Of a stretch of DNA of 64,000 nucleotides, positions 33,440-46,285 are shown piece after piece. A model generated the notes under the pieces. The model ran no database searches and had not been told where the DNA came from. It worked only from the letters and a program-made list of their open reading frames with translations. The stretch covers positions 224,001 to 288,000 of the forward strand of contig OY969934.1 in NCBI GenBank assembly GCA_963704725.1, in the 5' to 3' direction. The position numbers and the translations under genes were made by a program. The first letter of the stretch is position 1. The number at the start of each line of letters is the position of its first letter. This DNA comes from an uncultured Actinomycetes bacterium (GTDB taxonomy: Bacteria > Actinomycetota > UBA4738 > HRBIN12).

Positions 33440-33480
33440 CAGCTCCCGGCCGTTCCCGTCTTGTGCTGAAATGGGGTGCG

Positions 33481-34095
33481 ATGGGGGCTTCGAAAGCGTC
33501 GTTGAGGGTCCTCGTCGCGGACGGGCGGCCGGAACGGATGGACGAGGTCGGCCGCACCGTGGCGAGCCTCGGACACGAGGTGATCGCCCGGCAGGGCGAC
33601 CTGGCCGAGATCCGGCGGGCCACGGCGGTCGAGCGTCCGGACCTGGCCGTGGTGATCGTGGGCGAGAGCTCCGACGACGCGCTCCGGGCGATCGACCGGA
33701 TCGTGCAGGAAGCGGCGTGTCCCGTGATCGCGGTGCTTGACGTGCAGGACCGGGCGTTCGTCGAGCAGGCGGCGCGGCGAGGCATCTTCGCCTACATCAG
33801 TGGCGGGCAGGACCCGGTCGAGCTGCAGAGCTCGATCGACGTGACCCTGCAGCGGTTCGCGGAGTATCAGAACCTCGAGGGCGCCTTCGGCCGCCGGGCC
33901 ATCACCGAGCGGGCCAAGGGCATCCTGATGGAGCGGCACGGGATCGACGAGCACGCGGCGTTCGAGATGCTCCGCGACCACGCGCGCCGCAACGGGAAGA
34001 AGGTCGTCGACGTGGCCGAGGCCGTCGTCGCGAGCTTCCGGCTCCTGCCGGCCGGGGAGGCGGAGGGCGCCGGTCCCGGCGAGCCGTCGATCTAA
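33481..34095 (+). CDS. ANTAR-domain protein with (pseudo)receiver domain
   Basis: RRAITERAKGILMERHGIDEHAAFEMLRDHAR ANTAR motif; N-terminal receiver-like fold. Confidence 0.92.
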   Translation: MGASKASLRVLVADGRPERMDEVGRTVASLGHEVIARQGDLAEIRRATAVERPDLAVVIVGESSDDALRAIDRIVQEAACPVIAVLDVQDRAFVEQAARRGIFAYISGGQDPVELQSSIDVTLQRFAEYQNLEGAFGRRAITERAKGILMERHGIDEHAAFEMLRDHARRNGKKVVDVAEAVVASFRLLPAGEAEGAGPGEPSI

Positions 34096-39692: not shown

Positions 39693-40664
39693 ATGGACTA
39701 CCGTCATCTGGGCCGCTTCGGCCTCACCGTCAGCCCTCTGTGCCTCGGGACGATGAACTTCGGGCCCGAGACCCCCCAGGCCGACGGCCACGCGATCATG
39801 GATCGGGCGCTCGAGCTCGGCATCAACTTCTTCGACACGGCGAACGTCTACGGCCGCAGCAAGGGGGTCGGGGCGACCGAGACCATCGTGGGGAAGTGGC
39901 TGGCGCAGGGGGGCGGCCGGCGTGAGCGGGTGGTCCTGGCCACCAAGGTCTACGGCCAGATGGGGAAGTGGCCGAACGAGTCCCGGCTCTCCGCGCTCGG
40001 CATCCGTCGCGCCTGCGAGGAGTCGCTTCGGCGCCTGCAGACCGACCATGTCGACCTGTACCAGATGCACCACATCGATCGGGGGGCGCCGCTCGACGAG
40101 CTCTGGCAGGCGTTCGAGCTGCTGGTGCAGCAGGGCAAGGTCCTCTACGTGGGCTCGAGCAACTTCGCCGGCTGGCACATCGCCCGCGCGAACGAGGCGG
40201 CGAGGGCTAAGCACCTCCTGGGCCTCGTCTCCGAGCAGTGTCTCTACAACCTCGCGGAGCGCTCGAGCGAGCTCGAGGTGCTTCCCGCCTGCGAGGCCTA
40301 CGGCATGGGCGTGTTGCCGTACAGCCCGCTCGCCGGCGGCCTGCTGGGCGGCGTCCTGACCGAGACCGAGCGCGGCCGGCGGGCCGGCCGGGGCATCCAG
40401 GGGGAGCTCGCCGAGCGCCGGGAGCAGATCGAGGCGTACGAGAGGCTCTGCGCCGACCTGGGGGAGCCCCCCGCCGCCGTTGCGCTCGCGTGGGTCCTCG
40501 CCAACCCCGTCGTGACGGCGCCGATCCTAGGGCCTCGAACGCTCGACCAGCTCGAGGGCGCGATGCGGTCCTTGGAGGTGACGCTCGACCGGGACACGAT
40601 GAAGCGCCTCGATCGACTGTTCCCGGGCCCGGGCGGGGCGGCGCCGGAGGCCTACGCCTGGTAG
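39693..40664 (+). CDS. Aldo/keto reductase
   Basis: LGTMNFG, FFDTANVYG, LATKV, DLYQMH, YSPLAGG. Confidence 0.95.
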   Translation: MDYRHLGRFGLTVSPLCLGTMNFGPETPQADGHAIMDRALELGINFFDTANVYGRSKGVGATETIVGKWLAQGGGRRERVVLATKVYGQMGKWPNESRLSALGIRRACEESLRRLQTDHVDLYQMHHIDRGAPLDELWQAFELLVQQGKVLYVGSSNFAGWHIARANEAARAKHLLGLVSEQCLYNLAERSSELEVLPACEAYGMGVLPYSPLAGGLLGGVLTETERGRRAGRGIQGELAERREQIEAYERLCADLGEPPAAVALAWVLANPVVTAPILGPRTLDQLEGAMRSLEVTLDRDTMKRLDRLFPGPGGAAPEAYAW

Positions 40665-40697
40665 GGAGGCGACTCGACCCAGGTGTATGGTCGGCCG

Positions 40698-40883
40698 GTG
40701 GCCGAGGACGAGGCGCGGCAGCCCACGGGTTCCGAGTTCGCGGCGCTTTCGCAGGAGGAACGCGCCGTGCTGCTGAAGGTCGTCGACGTCCTGCGGAAGA
40801 TCAACTTCGGGACCGTTCTCCTGGTGGTTCAGGACGGCAAGGTCGTGCAGATCGAGATGGCGGAGAAGATCCGTCTCCGCTGA
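40698..40883 (+). CDS. DUF2292 (YezD/OscA-like) small protein, copy 1
   Basis: LRKINFGTVLLVVQDGKVVQIEMAEKIRL signature; upstream of sbp. Confidence 0.85.
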   Translation: MAEDEARQPTGSEFAALSQEERAVLLKVVDVLRKINFGTVLLVVQDGKVVQIEMAEKIRLR

Positions 40884-40920
40884 ATCACCGAAACACCACG
40901 AAGTGTGGCCCTTCGGGTCG

Positions 40921-40950
40921 TTGACACGCCGTTCGTTCTCCTGATATCCC
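40921..40950 (+). promoter_or_regulatory. Putative sigma-A promoter of the sulfate operon (TTGACA -35, weak TGATATCC -10)
   Basis: Perfect TTGACA at 40921-40926 in a lower-GC intergenic region. Confidence 0.5.
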
Positions 40951-40958
40951 TGACCTGT

Positions 40959-41037
40959 TCGGCCGACCGGACCACCGGAGGCCGACGTCCCACCGGCCCA
41001 CGAAGCCCTTTCGATTGACCGGTCAACCGGAGATCGA
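40959..41037 (+). promoter_or_regulatory. Tandem 27-nt hairpin element in the sbp leader (candidate cis-regulatory RNA)
   Basis: TCGGCC-GA-CCGG-ACCA-CCGG-A-GGCCGA (40959-40985) and TCGATT-GA-CCGG-TCAA-CCGG-A-GATCGA (41011-41037). Confidence 0.65.
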
Positions 41038-41080
41038 GGACCAGCTCGAACTCCATCCGGCTCTCGAAAGGAGCGCTCCC

Positions 41081-42184
41081 GTGCGGTTCCGCCTCACCTT
41101 CCGGCTGCTCTCGGTGATCGCCGTGCTCGGCGTCGTCGCCGCCGCCTGCAGCAGCGACTCCGGCGACGGGTCCACCGACCCCAACGGCTCGCCCGTCGGC
41201 TCCGTCGGCCCCGCGTGCACGCCTTCGGACTCTCCCGTCGTCACGCTCGCCGCGTACAGCAACGTCTACGACACCTACGGCAAGCTCATCTCGAACTTCC
41301 AGAGCGACTGGAAGGAGTCGCACGACGGGCAGCTGGTCCAGTTCCTCACGTCGTTCGGCGGAAGCACCACCCAGGCCCAGAGCGTGATCGGCGGGCTCGA
41401 TGCCGACATCGTCGCCCTGTCGCTCGCTCCCGACGTCGGCCTGATCCAGGACGCCGGGCTCATCACCCACGACTGGATGCAGGGAACCGAGGACGGCATC
41501 GTGGCGTCCTCGGCCGTCGTGTTCGACGTGCGCCCCGGCAACCCGAAGGGCATCCACAACTGGAGCGACCTGACGCAGCCCGGCCTGCAGATCCTGACCC
41601 CCGACCCGGCGGCGAGCGGCGGTGCGCGCTGGAACATCGTGGCCGCGTACGGCGCCGCCATGCGGGGAGAGGTTCCGGGCTACGCGGCGAACGACCCGGC
41701 CGCCGCGCAGCAGCTCCTGACGGACATCTTCAGGAACGTGACCGTCATGGACAAGAGCGCCAACGACTCGATCAAGAACTTCCAGGCCGGCAACGGCGAC
41801 GTCGCGATCACGTACGAGTACTCGGTCCTGACCGCGCAGGCGGCGGGACTCCCGGACGAGATGGTGATCCCGCCGTCGACGCTCTCGATCCGGACGCCGG
41901 TGGCGGTCGTGGACGCGAACGCCGAGCAGCACTGCGTCGAGGACATCGCGAACGCGTTCGTCGACTACCTGCACACGCAGGACGCCAAGGACGTCTACGC
42001 GAGCGTGGGGTTCGAGCGGCCGGTCGACCTGGCGGCGGCGCAGTCGGGGGACGACGGCGCCTACCAGCCGATCGACGACCTGTTCACCACCGACGACCTC
42101 GGCGGCTGGGACCAGCTCCAGAGCGACACGGTGTTCGGGCCGGACGGCGCGTTCACCAAGGCCCTGGCCGCGGCCCAGGGATAG
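41081..42184 (+). CDS. sbp: Sulfate/thiosulfate ABC transporter substrate-binding lipoprotein
   Basis: VAAAC lipobox, SFGGSTTQA, GNPKGIHNWSDL, PAASGGARWN. Confidence 0.93.
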   Translation: MRFRLTFRLLSVIAVLGVVAAACSSDSGDGSTDPNGSPVGSVGPACTPSDSPVVTLAAYSNVYDTYGKLISNFQSDWKESHDGQLVQFLTSFGGSTTQAQSVIGGLDADIVALSLAPDVGLIQDAGLITHDWMQGTEDGIVASSAVVFDVRPGNPKGIHNWSDLTQPGLQILTPDPAASGGARWNIVAAYGAAMRGEVPGYAANDPAAAQQLLTDIFRNVTVMDKSANDSIKNFQAGNGDVAITYEYSVLTAQAAGLPDEMVIPPSTLSIRTPVAVVDANAEQHCVEDIANAFVDYLHTQDAKDVYASVGFERPVDLAAAQSGDDGAYQPIDDLFTTDDLGGWDQLQSDTVFGPDGAFTKALAAAQG

Positions 42185-42185
42185 C

Positions 42186-43076
42186 GTGAGCACGCAGACG
42201 CTCGTTCGGACGCCGGTCCCGTCCCCGTCTCCCGCGGGGGCGGGGCGGCGCGTCTCGGTTCGGGTGCGATCCGCCCTGGCGCGATGGGGCCTGCGCGGAT
42301 CCGCCCTGTTGTACCTGGGCCTGCTGATCGCGCTTCCGACGGCGGCCGTCATCTGGCGCGGGTTCCAACACGGTCTGGGGGCGTTCCGCAGCGCCTTCCA
42401 GGTCCCCGGCGCCGCGGAGGCGGTCGGGCTCACCATCGTCCTCGCGGTCGTCACCGCGGTCATCAACGTCGTCTTCGGCACGCTCATCGCGTACGTGCTC
42501 GTCCGCTACGAGTTCCCGGGCCGACGGGTCCTGTCGACCGTCGTCGACATCCCGTTCGCCATCCCGACGCTCGTCACCGGCGTCATGCTCCGGGCGCTCT
42601 ACGGGCCCAACGCGCTCGTCGGAGGGTTCCTCGAGCGTCACGGCGTCCACATCGTCTTCGCGCAGGCCGGGATCCTGCTCGCGCTCCTGTTCGTGACGCT
42701 GCCGCTGGTGGTCAGGACCGTGCAGCCGGTGCTCCTCGAGCTCGACGAGACCGAGGAGGAGGCGGCCAGGGTCTTGGGCGCGACGCGGTGGGCGACGTTC
42801 CGTCGGGTGGTCCTGCCCAAGCTCCGCCCCGGGATCGTCGCCGGCGGGCTGCTCGCGTTCGCCCGGGCGCTCGGGGAGTTCGGGGCCGTCGTCATCATCT
42901 CGGGCAACATCATCGGCAAGACCCTCACGGCCCCCTACCTGATCTTCCAGCTCGCGAGTCAGTTCAAGATCGAGGAGGCGGCGGCGGTCTCCACGCTGCT
43001 GTTCGCGATCGCGTTCGGCGTCGTGCTGCTCACGGAGCGGCTCGTCGGAGTGCGCCGTTCGGAGCGTCGGTCGTGA
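42186..43076 (+). CDS. cysT: Sulfate ABC transporter permease CysT
   Basis: VLVRYEFPG, DIPFAIPT, VRTVQPVL, EEAA loop, RALGEFG. Confidence 0.92.
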   Translation: MSTQTLVRTPVPSPSPAGAGRRVSVRVRSALARWGLRGSALLYLGLLIALPTAAVIWRGFQHGLGAFRSAFQVPGAAEAVGLTIVLAVVTAVINVVFGTLIAYVLVRYEFPGRRVLSTVVDIPFAIPTLVTGVMLRALYGPNALVGGFLERHGVHIVFAQAGILLALLFVTLPLVVRTVQPVLLELDETEEEAARVLGATRWATFRRVVLPKLRPGIVAGGLLAFARALGEFGAVVIISGNIIGKTLTAPYLIFQLASQFKIEEAAAVSTLLFAIAFGVVLLTERLVGVRRSERRS

Positions 43077-43945
43077 GCGCCCCCGGGACCGTGCAGATCC
43101 CCGAGGCCCGCGCGCCCAGGCTCGCCACGAAGTCGCGGCGTCGGCTCGTGCACGGCGGGCTCATCGCCGCCGCGCTCGTCTACGTCGGCGTGCTGGTGAT
43201 CGCGCCGCTCGTCGGGATCGCCTGGGCGGCGCTCAAGCCGGGGTGGTCCCTCATCGCCGAGACGCTCACGGCGCCGGACGTCCTGCACGCCTACCAGCTG
43301 ACCATCGTGATCACGCTCGTGACGCTCGTCACGACGAGCGTCTGCGGCGTGCTCGTCGCGCTGGTGGTCGCCAGGGACCGGTTCCGGCTGCGCCCCTTCA
43401 TGAGCGCGCTCGTCAACCTGCCGATCGCCGTGTCGCCGGTGATCGTCGGCGTGATGGCGGTGCTGCTGTTCGGCACGGGAGGGTGGTTCGAGCCCTGGTT
43501 CAGCGCCCGTGGCATCGAGGTCCTGTACGCGGTCCCGTCCATGGTCCTGGTCACGATCTTCATCTGCATCCCGTTCGTGATCCGCGAGGTCGTGCCGGTG
43601 CTGCAGGAGCTCGGCGTGTCCGAGGAGGAGGCGGCGCGGACGCTCGGGGCCTCGTCGCTGCAGACCTTCTTCCGCGTCACGCTGAAGAACATCCGGTGGG
43701 GGTTGCTCTACGGCATCGCCTTGTCGACGGCGCGAGCGATCGGCGAGATCGGCGCGGTCGCCATCGTGAGCGGTGGCTTCAACGGCCGGACCGAGACGGC
43801 CACGCTCTACATCATGCGGGAGTTCGATCAGTTCCACGATGCCCAGGGCTACGTCGTCGCGTTGACGCTGGCCCTGGCGTCGATCGTGCTCCTGGTCGCG
43901 ATCGAGATGTTCAAACGCCGGCAGGAGAGGACGCAGGAGACATGA
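43073..43945 (+). CDS. cysW: Sulfate ABC transporter permease CysW
   Basis: LPIAVSPVI, PFVIREVVP, NIRWGLLYG, ARAIGEIGA. Confidence 0.92.
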   Translation: MSAPGTVQIPEARAPRLATKSRRRLVHGGLIAAALVYVGVLVIAPLVGIAWAALKPGWSLIAETLTAPDVLHAYQLTIVITLVTLVTTSVCGVLVALVVARDRFRLRPFMSALVNLPIAVSPVIVGVMAVLLFGTGGWFEPWFSARGIEVLYAVPSMVLVTIFICIPFVIREVVPVLQELGVSEEEAARTLGASSLQTFFRVTLKNIRWGLLYGIALSTARAIGEIGAVAIVSGGFNGRTETATLYIMREFDQFHDAQGYVVALTLALASIVLLVAIEMFKRRQERTQET

Positions 43946-45033
43946 CGAAGCCGATGCAGATGACGGGCACGCCCATCCGGGTCGAGGGCCTGTGGAAGCG
44001 ATTCGGGGACTTCGAGGCCGTGCGCGACGTCACGTTCACGGCCGAGGCGGGCAGCATCACCGCGCTCCTGGGTCCGAGCGGCTCCGGCAAGAGCACGGTG
44101 CTTCGGATGATCGCCGGGCTGGAGGAGCCGACGGCGGGACGGATCTGGATGGAGGGGGAGGAGCAGACCCTCAAGTCCGTCCAGGAGCGCCGCATCGGGT
44201 TCGTGTTCCAGCACTTCGCCCTGTTCCGCCACATGACGGTCACGCAGAACGTGGCGTTCGGCCTCTCGGTACGCAAGATCCCGAAGGCCCGCCAGCGCGA
44301 GCGCGTGAACGAGCTGCTCGAGCTCGTCCAGCTCACCGGGTTCCGGGACCGCTACCCCGACCAGCTCTCGGGCGGCCAGCGCCAGCGGGTCGCCCTCGCC
44401 CGGGCGCTCGCGCCCCGGCCGAAGGTGCTCCTGCTGGACGAGCCCTTCGGTGCGCTCGACGCCCGGGTGAGGCAGGAGCTCCGGCGATGGCTCGACGAGC
44501 TCCATCGCGAGCTCGGAGTCACGAGCCTTCTCGTCACCCACGATCAGGACGAGGCACTCGAGCTCGCCAACCGGGTCGTCGTGATGCACGAGGGCGGCGT
44601 GCAGCAGGTGGGGACGCCGCACGAGGTCTACAACGAGCCGGCCACGCCGTTCGTGGCCGGGTTCGTGGGCACCGCGAACGTCCTGCACGGCCGAGTCATG
44701 GACGGGCACGTCCAGGTCGGCGACCATCGGGTGGCCGGCGCGGACCATCTGGAGGACGGGATCGCCGCGCGGGCCTTCGTTCGCCCGCACGACGTCCTCG
44801 TCTCGACGGTCGCGCACAACGGCGGTTCGGTCGTCGCCGTGGCCGAGCGGGTCGTGACGATGGGATGGCTCTCCCGCGTGAGCCTGCGCCTGCCCGACGA
44901 CCAGGTGCTGATCGCCGAGCTCCCCAACGACGAGCTCGGATCCGTCGAGGAGGGCTCGCGGGTCTGGGTCGACCTGCGGCGGGCGAAGGCGTTCGAGACC
45001 CCGGAGCCCGTGGGGGCGATCGCTTCGCCGTGA
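43942..45033 (+). CDS. cysA: Sulfate ABC transporter ATPase CysA
   Basis: GPSGSGKS, FVFQHFALFRHMTV, LSGGQRQR, TOBE-like C-terminus. Confidence 0.93.
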   Translation: MTKPMQMTGTPIRVEGLWKRFGDFEAVRDVTFTAEAGSITALLGPSGSGKSTVLRMIAGLEEPTAGRIWMEGEEQTLKSVQERRIGFVFQHFALFRHMTVTQNVAFGLSVRKIPKARQRERVNELLELVQLTGFRDRYPDQLSGGQRQRVALARALAPRPKVLLLDEPFGALDARVRQELRRWLDELHRELGVTSLLVTHDQDEALELANRVVVMHEGGVQQVGTPHEVYNEPATPFVAGFVGTANVLHGRVMDGHVQVGDHRVAGADHLEDGIAARAFVRPHDVLVSTVAHNGGSVVAVAERVVTMGWLSRVSLRLPDDQVLIAELPNDELGSVEEGSRVWVDLRRAKAFETPEPVGAIASP

Positions 45034-45046
45034 GCGCCCCGAAGCC

Positions 45047-45092
45047 TGAGCGGCCTGCCGAGCGGGTGCCCTCCTCCTCGGCGGGCCGCTCA
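45047..45092 (+). terminator. 16-bp stem-loop after cysA (terminator/stabiliser candidate)
   Basis: TGAGCGGCCTGCCGAG / CTCGGCGGGCCGCTCA inverted repeat with one G-U pair; no U-tract. Confidence 0.45.
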
Positions 45093-45122
45093 CCACCCGC
45101 GCTCCCGGATGCCGGCCCGTCG

Positions 45123-45254
45123 ATGGACGAGCTCGAGGTCCTGCTCCGGGTGGCCGACCTCCTGCGGAAGGTCAGGTTCGGAAGCGTGCTGATCGTGGTG
45201 CAGGATGGCAAGGTGGTGCAGATCGAGATGGCAGAGAAGATCCGGCTGCGATGA
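45123..45254 (+). CDS. DUF2292 (YezD/OscA-like) small protein, copy 2 (alternative start GTG 45030)
   Basis: LRKVRFGSVLIVVQDGKVVQIEMAEKIRLR; stop overlaps the next ATG. Confidence 0.8.
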   Translation: MDELEVLLRVADLLRKVRFGSVLIVVQDGKVVQIEMAEKIRLR

Positions 45255-46285
45255 GTCGCGCACGGGTGGTCGCCGGGCTCTCGGCGCTGGTGCTGCTCTC
45301 CGCCTGCGCCAGTCCCGAGTCGCGGGCGCGCGGGACCGCGGGCGTGATCCGGCTCGGGGTCTTCGCGGCGCTCACCCACGCCCCGGCTCTCGTCGGGATC
45401 GGCGGCGGGATCTTCGACCGGGTGCTTGGCGGCACGCGCGTCGAGGTGACGACCTTCGACTCGGGGACCGACGCCGGCGTCGCCCTGCTCTCGGGCTCGA
45501 TCGACGCGGCCTACATGGGGCCCTTCCCCGCGGAGCTCCTGTACCTGCGCTCGGGGCGTGTGGCGATCGTCAGCGGGGCCTCCTCCGGCGGGGCGTCGTT
45601 CGTGGTGCGGTCCGGCGAGGGCATCGCAGGCCCCGCCGACCTGCACGACACGCGGATCGGCGTGCCGGGGATCAACAACACCCAGGACATCGCCCTCCGT
45701 TCATGGCTGCACCGCAACGGCCTGCAAGCACGTGACGAAGGCGGAGACGTGGCCGTGGTGGAGGTGGGAGGCTCCGAGCTCCTGCCGCTGTTGCAGCGCG
45801 ACCAGCTCGACGGAGCGCTCGTCCCCGAGCCGTACCCGACGTACCTGGTGGACCGGGGCGTCGCCGACCGGCTGGTGGACGCGGCCGCGCTCTCCCCGCA
45901 GGGCGGGCTCCTCGCGACCGACCTGGTCGTCTCGACGGCCTTCATGGATGCCCACCCCGACGTGGTTCGAGCGCTCGTCGAGGCCAACGTGGAGGCGATC
46001 CGCCTGTGCCGGGAGCAACCCGATCGCGCCGAGGAGATCGCCCGGCGGGAGCTCGCCGCCCGTGGCGGGCCGGTCATGGATCGGGCGGTGTTCGACGTTG
46101 CGTGGGCCGAGCTGGCCTTCTCGTGGGATCCCATGATCGCGTCGTTCGAGCGGGTTGCCGCGGAGACCCTTCGGGCCGGGTTCCTGCCGGAGCCGTCCGT
46201 CGAGGTGGCCGGTCTCTTCCGGCTTGACGACCTCGACGACGTCCTGAACGATGAGGGTCTTCCGCCGGTGGGGGTAGCCGCGTGA
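45251..46285 (+). CDS. Sulfonate/nitrate-type ABC substrate-binding lipoprotein (SsuA-like)
   Basis: LSAC lipobox, THAPALVG, YMGP.PA, NTQDIALR, VPEP. Confidence 0.88.
   Translation: MSRARVVAGLSALVLLSACASPESRARGTAGVIRLGVFAALTHAPALVGIGGGIFDRVLGGTRVEVTTFDSGTDAGVALLSGSIDAAYMGPFPAELLYLRSGRVAIVSGASSGGASFVVRSGEGIAGPADLHDTRIGVPGINNTQDIALRSWLHRNGLQARDEGGDVAVVEVGGSELLPLLQRDQLDGALVPEPYPTYLVDRGVADRLVDAAALSPQGGLLATDLVVSTAFMDAHPDVVRALVEANVEAIRLCREQPDRAEEIARRELAARGGPVMDRAVFDVAWAELAFSWDPMIASFERVAAETLRAGFLPEPSVEVAGLFRLDDLDDVLNDEGLPPVGVAA

Follow-up and report, generated by a model that had tools for sequence, protein, structure and literature searches.

What is the function of two small hairpins of one architecture that lie between a gene encoding a very small DUF2292 protein and the sulfate ATP-binding cassette (ABC) transporter operon of an uncultured Actinomycetes bacterium? 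This question is raised by a stretch of 64,000 nucleotides (nt) from contig OY969934.1 (positions 224,001 to 288,000, assembly GCA_963704725.1), hereafter the window, to which all coordinates refer unless a contig or locus is named. The twin hairpins are proposed to form the ON state of a leader RNA that switches the sulfate importer genes. In the default state, a conserved box holding the ribosome-binding site would be paired with the 5' half of hairpin 2, which would block translation of sbp, and in a second leader type (type B) the 3' arm of the hairpin would be taken into an intrinsic terminator. A trans-acting factor, most likely the neighbouring DUF2292/YezD/OscA protein acting as a dimer, would clamp the hairpin by gripping the two stems and the GA/A internal loop, which would free the ribosome-binding site or prevent termination and turn the sulfur-uptake genes on. 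The layout would be regulator-first as in HutP, and a second DUF2292 copy in the regulated operon would give positive feedback. In its general form, this reading holds that DUF2292/YezD/OscA founds an undescribed family of tiny dimeric RNA-binding activators of the GA/A-loop hairpin, acting by antitermination or by opening of the ribosome-binding site, that protein and RNA site have been retained as a pair in Actinomycetota, Planctomycetota-like and other lineages, and that the two form a relay in which an upstream nutrient sensor sets the protein level and the protein opens scavenging operons. We give it a probability of about one half.

On direct reading, the hairpins are TCGGCC-GA-CCGG-ACCA-CCGG-A-GGCCGA (hairpin 1) and TCGATT-GA-CCGG-TCAA-CCGG-A-GATCGA (hairpin 2), with start positions 52 nt apart, exactly in the places and with the architecture that a preliminary description of the sequence had given. 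Its claim that three lower-stem pairs differ between the copies and still pair also held, as pairing is kept in all three, the last being U.G. The internal loop places two nucleotides (GA) opposite one (A), with Watson-Crick or U.G pairs on both sides. The lower stem of hairpin 2 holds three U.G pairs, which would be C-A mismatches on the opposite strand. Hairpin 1 is present in the minimum-energy fold of 40945-41085, and hairpins 1 and 2 were matched by the covariance model R1, described below, at E=1.9e-8 and E=2.4e-8, respectively. A weak stem at 40980-40998 overlaps the 3' arm of hairpin 1.

The core 16-mer GACCGG-N4-CCGGAG has two exact matches in the window, namely hairpins 1 and 2, and with up to two mismatches it has 51 matches, a number in line with chance (46.7 expected). 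In the source genome (3.45 Mb, 71% G+C, 95% complete), GACCGG-N4-CCGGA matches 28 sites, of which three have at least six consecutive lower-stem pairs and the other 25 have at most four. The three long-stem sites are hairpins 1 and 2 and a third site at C1:2487482, and the same three were recovered genome-wide by R1 (E≤5e-7; next best E=0.065). In the third copy (C1:2487474-2487504; L009:5475-5505), the lower stem is 7 bp long and the loop is ACAA. This copy follows a malic-enzyme-like gene and stands 3 nt before a GGAGGGA ribosome-binding site, after which come a 28-codon open reading frame and the gene for the hydrogenase maturation protease HycI; no terminator and no obvious link to sulfur were seen there.

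Pairing was compared in two alignments. In the first, made up of 33 instances from related genomes, 93.9% of the pairs were formed compared to 83.7% after shuffling and 23-51% with the partner columns slid, and four of the ten pairs changed on both sides; these instances had been picked by a regular expression plus partial pairing, so the inner pairs are biased. R1 was built from this alignment and gave 95 further instances from 80 public DUF2292 loci in Actinomycetota metagenome-assembled genomes, with 91.9% paired compared to 81.8% and six of the ten pairs covarying in an alignment that was itself fitted to R1. Many paired combinations occur at the upper stem, which varies in its middle two positions (CCGG:CCGG, CCAG:CUGG, CCUG:CAGG, CUGG:CCAG, CUCG:CGAG and CCCG:CGGG); the third upper-stem pair is G-C, A-U, U-A or G.U, and different upper-stem variants coexist within one genome. 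The loop is 4 nt long in the window and 3-8 nt in the relatives, and its sequence is variable (ACCA, UCAA, ACAU, AAUGA and others, some being ACGA).

Every instance in the relatives faces a downstream gene on the same strand and lies 12-150 nt before its start (hairpins in L077, L081 and L084 were left out of the assignment). The downstream genes encode Sbp, SsuA-like proteins, TauE, a Na_Pi_cotrans-type membrane protein and DUF2292. Three hairpins stand in tandem in some leaders (L081, G045:C59; L082, G058:C6; L074/L102, G057), and the middle of three in the sbp leaders of one family has a CCUG:CAGG upper stem.

The covariation and enrichment near DUF2292 genes that the preliminary description had proposed to look for were found both within the same order and at divergent metagenome DUF2292 genes. 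Its comparison with Rfam likewise favoured novelty: Rfam 15 gave no match overlapping 40959-41037 at E≤10 when 40000-46000 was scanned, and 20 motif-bearing loci from several lineages gave 0 matches at E≤1. The element is very probably an undescribed cis-regulatory RNA.

For 30 loci from 61 related genomes, the 300 nt 3' of the DUF2292 gene were taken, and the leaders are of two types. Type A leaders, as in the window before sbp, consist of TTGAC(A), a -10 element, hairpin 1, hairpin 2 and a conserved box with the ribosome-binding site; the 5' arm of hairpin 2 is CCUUUCGRUY and the box that holds the ribosome-binding site is ...(CCGGUC)(G)AUCGAAAGGAG. Type B leaders have one hairpin, usually CCAG:CUGG, which runs directly into a strong stem-loop, and they precede ssuA-like, TauE/SafE, Na_Pi_cotrans-type membrane protein and DUF2292 genes.

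In both types the hairpin meets a competing structure. In the minimum-energy fold of 40945-41085 (z = -2.9), hairpin 1 is kept and hairpin 2 is not; the switching strand pairs with the conserved box (Table 1), burying the Shine-Dalgarno sequence. An OFF helix of this kind can reach 16 bp, formed by CCUUUCGRUUGACCGG with CCGGUC(G)AUCGAAAGG. The same alternative helix, of at most 16 bp between CCUUUCGGUUGACCGG and CCGGUCGAUCGAAAGG, was found in 23 type A leaders, four of which come from genomes flagged unpublished, and the Shine-Dalgarno sequence was paired at three or more of its four bases in 17 of the 23 sbp-leader minimum-energy folds and at two or more in 22. RNAalifold applied to eight leaders returned the two hairpins as the consensus structure. 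In type B leaders, the first base of the motif's 3' arm (GGCCGCG...) opens a hairpin of 10-14 bp in all 24 single-hairpin leaders, with at least four U within the 9 nt after the stem in 22 of them, and these stem-loops are intrinsic terminators. The single-hairpin leaders of the relatives show the generic hallmark of an attenuator, an antiterminator and a terminator helix that use one strand in common and exclude each other, and the window shows the translational version.

Hairpin and OFF structure are taken to exclude each other in both leader types, the hairpin representing the ON state, which in vivo is inferred. The OFF structures are predicted to be much more stable than the hairpin; something must therefore hold the hairpin closed, and the factor would be an activator. 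Such activator logic fits genes that are needed when sulfur is scarce. The post-transcriptional control that had been suggested for the locus is strongly supported by these exclusive pairings with a ribosome-binding site or an intrinsic terminator.

The promoter of the sbp leader was assigned because it is conserved in the relatives, where TTGAC(A) stands at an equal distance from the motif. A strict regular expression for the -35/-10 pair matched 33 of 76 leaders, mostly with 4-10 nt between the -10 element and the motif, and strict promoter and terminator expressions of this kind undercount. Transcription would start near 40957, 2 nt before hairpin 1, judging from the sequence. The preliminary description had placed the hairpins after TTGACA and before the sbp ribosome-binding site, and both landmarks are there; the promoter itself was missed by a sigma-70 scan and is drawn from conservation.

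The distribution of the hairpin was compared with that of DUF2292. Of the 61 relatives, 34 have DUF2292 and 35 have the hairpin at E≤0.001, and the hairpin is present in every one of the 34 with DUF2292 (30 of 30 when four genomes flagged unpublished are excluded). The sole genome with a hairpin and no DUF2292, G050, gave a marginal match (E=5e-4). Four relatives without DUF2292 have kept a target gene: sbp is retained in G052 and G055, and a TauE orthologue in G023, G030 and G055. No hairpin was found in these four genomes, either genome-wide or upstream of the retained sbp and TauE genes. AT-rich repeated boxes occur upstream of sbp and TauE in DUF2292-negative relatives (L107, L108 and L287; G052 and G055), and in G055 a gene for an Rrf2-family regulator adjoins TauE; the repeats and the Rrf2 gene look like a repressor-based replacement of the hairpin system. 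Outside the relatives, a hairpin match lies within 1.5 kb in 68 of the 80 public DUF2292 loci. In a phylum-wide sample of 151 genomes, R1 matched six, all in the taxonomic order of the source genome, and PF10055 matched the same six plus two of another family. In both of the latter, a single hairpin of the same design was found by eye between DUF2292 and sbp, below the R1 threshold. In these two genomes (L120:1340-1385 and L121:1380-1420), DUF2292 has its own TTGACA promoter, overlapped by the direct repeat CACTCCT-ATA-(A/G)CACTCCTG, which looks like the operator of an upstream sensor.

A broader sample consisted of 80 metagenome loci around divergent DUF2292 genes; one source gives the lead query the name Planctomycetaceae. 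R1 at E≤1 gave 58 matches in these loci. The strand of DUF2292 carries 56 of the matches, mostly just 3' of the gene. A separate anchor search was performed with GAC..G-N3-8-C..GAG fixed and the two middle upper-stem positions left free. In the 450 nt 3' of DUF2292 (33 kb in total), 70 matches were obtained and both free positions were paired in 63, whereas in the rest of the loci and the opposite strand (319 kb) both were paired in 7 of 47 matches, which is the chance rate. The motif is accordingly about 90-fold enriched downstream of the divergent metagenome genes, with a paired match in 55 of the 80 loci and eight different pair combinations.

Of 21 downstream metagenome genes scanned, four encode DUF1559 proteins with an N-methyl motif, two Porin_O_P, one an SsuA-like protein and one a PAPS reductase; three were below the cut-off and ten had no family. 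On Planctomycetota-like contigs (L217, L232, L243, L244, L252 and L272), a taxonomy drawn from one Planctomycetaceae-named homologue and typical neighbour genes, the hairpin stands before DUF1559/prepilin-type, small lipoprotein and OprO/P-type porin genes. There are hints that these prepilin, lipoprotein and porin genes belong to a sulfur-scavenging regulon. Taken together, phyletic co-occurrence and gene order make DUF2292 the somewhat probable binding partner of the hairpin.

The two DUF2292 genes of the window score 55.5 and 58.9 bits against the PF10055 cut-off of 22, and a search of representative sequences returned 2,860 cluster representatives at E≤0.001. Close homologues show hardly any variation in the core ...FGTVLLVVQDGKVVQIEMAEKIRLR, and conservation at several core positions extends to the whole family. 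An AlphaFold2 model of the single-domain protein shows a disordered N-terminus, one helix and a beta-hairpin, with a predicted local distance difference test score (pLDDT) of 75. Fused two-domain proteins also exist (25 aligned, one from Methylomusa anaerophila), and the two-domain model is a confident pseudo-dimer (pLDDT 83, predicted template modelling score 0.72), which suggests that the single-domain form may work as a dimer. The two-domain proteins (A5: P0216 and 24 others), of about 110-125 amino acids (aa), mostly share a conserved C-terminal G-x-x-G-[DE]-G-I tail, which single-domain forms do not carry. In a structural comparison with VIA-align against 48,161 chains the highest Z was 4.7, and the weak, non-significant fold matches include the DNA binders MazE and SRF/MADS. 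A PDB sequence search with DUF2292 gave chance matches only and no relative, and an ESM Atlas search gave no usable match. As modelled, the structure would neither support nor contradict RNA binding.

According to two papers, oscA is a small gene of unknown function clustered with sulfate ABC transporter genes, and the oscA-sbp unit is strongly induced by chromate, an induction that they link to sulfate starvation (PMC2996968, PMC12892942). In the 2010 paper, which cites a 2009 study tying OscA to sulfur starvation and chromate resistance, its function was still unknown (PMC2996968). In the main texts of the literature searched, no function of DUF2292 and no mechanism of oscA or yezD was found, yezD being mentioned in passing, and looking for a candidate sulfate riboswitch in Actinobacteria turned up nothing relevant.

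Several observations weigh against an RNA-binding DUF2292 activator. The co-occurrence is partly built in, as R1 was trained beside DUF2292 genes and the related genomes are not independent. A match within 1.5 kb is lacking in 12 of the 80 public loci and a paired match 3' of DUF2292 in 25 of the 80 metagenome loci, some of these contigs being cut short. The third copy in the source genome precedes a hydrogenase maturation protease gene and not a sulfur gene. The DUF2292 core is mildly basic (8 K/R against 6 D/E) and has invariant acidic residues, and no known RNA-binding fold was matched by the single- or two-domain model, Foldseek returning no match of any kind at E≤0.001. Furthermore, DUF2292 gene 1 lies upstream of the putative promoter and has no obvious sulfur-responsive control, and a consensus sigma-70 scan of 40600-41200 called no promoter because the -10 element, TG-n-TATCCC, is off consensus.

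The alternative that survives best, though we consider it unlikely, is a very small riboswitch in which a sulfur-related metabolite or ion binds the GA/A loop and DUF2292 is a co-regulated neighbour. The two-state architecture, with a terminator or anti-ribosome-binding-site helix as expression platform, would suit it, the protein fold evidence gives no pointer to RNA binding, and the tandem small hairpins resemble the guanidine-II riboswitch. However, the conserved unpaired part amounts to 3 nt plus a loop varying in sequence and length (3-8 nt), which leaves little for a specific pocket, and the four genomes that kept target genes have lost hairpin and DUF2292 together. The metagenome element also lies 3' and not 5' of DUF2292, as seen from the 63 paired matches downstream and 7 elsewhere. 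The order DUF2292, hairpin, variable genes is that expected of a regulator gene with its site and not of a riboswitch with its target.

An RNA-binding protein other than DUF2292 could also recognise the hairpin, with DUF2292 serving otherwise in sulfur scavenging, for example as a transporter accessory, and we hold this for less probable still. DUF2292 function is unreported in the literature searched and the gene is often the first of ABC operons, both of which would agree with such a role. Against it, the presence of ANTAR proteins does not track the hairpin, neither CAT_RBD nor HutP was found in the source genome, and DUF2292 is consistently adjacent to the hairpin, which no other gene is.

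If the hairpins served merely to stabilise the mRNA 5' end or to mark a processing site, with no switching, the position of hairpin 1 at the predicted extreme 5' end of the transcript would be accounted for. We give this little credence, as the invariant GA/A loop, the conserved competing helices and the cross-lineage tie to DUF2292 would all be left unexplained. Last, double-stranded DNA operators of a dimeric repressor at +1 and +53 of the sbp promoter, for which the 4-10 nt between the -10 element and the first hairpin in most of the 33 leaders with a promoter found, the 52-bp distance of about five helical turns and the weak matches to DNA binders can be cited, are very unlikely, since the middle bases of the half-sites vary yet stay complementary, even within one genome and with a nearly invariant candidate protein, the spacer is 3-8 nt, a one-base shift at the GA/A loop puts the outer repeat out of register, the U.G pairs (three in hairpin 2) are on the sense strand only, and the sites are fused to terminators and anti-ribosome-binding-site helices and are intercistronic in other lineages with no promoter nearby.

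The features of the hairpin region and its surroundings are collected in Table 1.

Table 1. Coordinates of the twin hairpins, their competing strands and the surrounding genes in the window.
Feature	Coordinates	Strand	Remarks
DUF2292/YezD-family gene 1	40683..40883	+	66 aa; Pfam PF10055, E=4e-15
Putative promoter	40921..40950	+	-35 TTGACA 40921-40926; extended -10 TG-n-TATCCC 40942-40950
Hairpin 1	40959..40985	+	6-bp lower stem, GA/A internal loop, CCGG:CCGG upper stem, ACCA loop
Switching strand GCCCUUUCGAUUGACCGG	41005..41022	+	Forms part of hairpin 2 (5' half) or of the OFF helix (one strand)
Hairpin 2	41011..41037	+	Lower stem of at most 8 bp with U.G pairs, GA/A internal loop, CCGG:CCGG upper stem, TCAA (UCAA) loop
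Conserved box CCGGCUCUCGAAAGGAGC	41057..41075	+	Includes Shine-Dalgarno GGAG 41070-41073; buried in the OFF helix
Operon	41081..45033	+	sbp 41081-42184, cysT 42186-43076, cysW 43076-43945, cysA ~43957-45033
DUF2292 gene 2	45123..45254	+	43 aa; PF10055, E=3.7e-16; at the end of the hairpin-controlled operon

The operon genes were assigned by Pfam as SBP_bac_11 (sbp), BPD_transp_1 twice (cysT and cysW) and ABC_tran with CysA_C_terminal (cysA), and sbp starts with a GTG codon. DUF2292 gene 1, whose homologues carry the name 'YezD family protein', begins 18 nt after an aldo/keto reductase gene (the two together at 39693-40883). Some 20 related loci keep the reductase gene directly 5' of DUF2292, ahead of leaders of the sbp type as well as the ssuA type, which suggests that the two genes share one transcript. 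The stop codon of DUF2292 gene 2 overlaps the start of an ssuA-like gene (45251-46285; Pfam NMT1_2). A promoter and a hairpin were looked for upstream of DUF2292 gene 2 and neither was found; its place inside the regulated operon makes positive feedback possible. Between the cysA stop and this gene lies a long G+C-rich hairpin of about 20 bp (45047-45092), which surfaced solely as a spurious mir-3158 match to Rfam and could be an intercistronic stabiliser or a partial terminator.

If an RNA-binding role of DUF2292 is correct, a protein family with thousands of members gains a mechanism, and a new RNA motif, probably together with a new RNA-binding fold, joins the small list of protein-dependent antitermination systems. 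It would also explain the control of sulfur uptake in largely uncultured Actinomycetota and in other phyla without CysB- or CymR-type repressors. The hairpin is short and modular and acts in this reading at the transcriptional and translational levels, so the hypothesis is directly testable and the hairpin a possible genetic part.

Finally, the element was compared with known RNA motifs. In a kink-turn, a 3-nt bulge is succeeded on both strands by sheared G.A pairs in tandem; the loop here differs in being 2 nt opposite 1 nt, with at most one G.A pair. The guanidine-II (mini-ykkC) riboswitch, an Rfam family, is built of paired hairpins with conserved ACGR tetraloops closed by C-G. It is similar in having two small tandem hairpins 5' of a ribosome-binding site, and some loops in the relatives are ACGA; it differs in that the loops here are ACCA and UCAA and not conserved ACGR, single-hairpin forms are common, and Rfam gave no match.

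Among protein-dependent systems, HutP of Bacillus subtilis acts at the hutP-hutH intercistronic terminator as a hexamer of subunits of about 150 aa that binds spaced UAG triplets and needs histidine. The likeness lies in the order of regulator gene, RNA target and structural genes, and in protein binding that prevents a terminator and so activates. The target here is instead a structured hairpin and the candidate protein has a core of 40 aa, and HutP (PF09021) had no match in the source genome in a search whose control found B. subtilis HutP. The RAT hairpin is imperfect and about 29 nt long, contains internal loops that are asymmetric, overlaps the 5' arm of a terminator and is bound by the small beta-rich dimeric CAT domain of BglG, LicT and SacY. 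An imperfect small hairpin with an asymmetric internal loop that shares bases with a terminator is also present here, but DUF2292 is predicted to form a helix plus beta-hairpin and not the four-stranded CAT fold, it has no PRD sensor domains, and the RAT sequence differs; CAT_RBD (PF03123) had no match in the source genome, the control search having found it in four known genomes.

The ANTAR regulators AmiR, NasR and EutV recognise dual hexaloop hairpins. Tandem small leader hairpins, one of which competes with a terminator, are common to both systems, whereas the loops here have 4-5 nt (3-8 overall) instead of six, and it is the GA/A internal loop that is conserved. The ANTAR domain (PF03861) occurs in 23 of the 61 relatives, 15 of the 35 with a hairpin and 8 of the 26 without, and the only ANTAR gene of the source genome lies in the window at 33442-34050, 7 kb upstream of the hairpins. 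The analogy with ANTAR and boxB hairpins drawn in the preliminary description holds for the logic alone, and the loops and stems fit neither family. In its logic the system is closest to HutP, CAT/RAT and ANTAR, with the defining features of each, where examined, differing from those seen here. At the level of the protein, OscA of Pseudomonas corrugata and YezD of B. subtilis belong to the same family, PF10055, as the two genes of the window.

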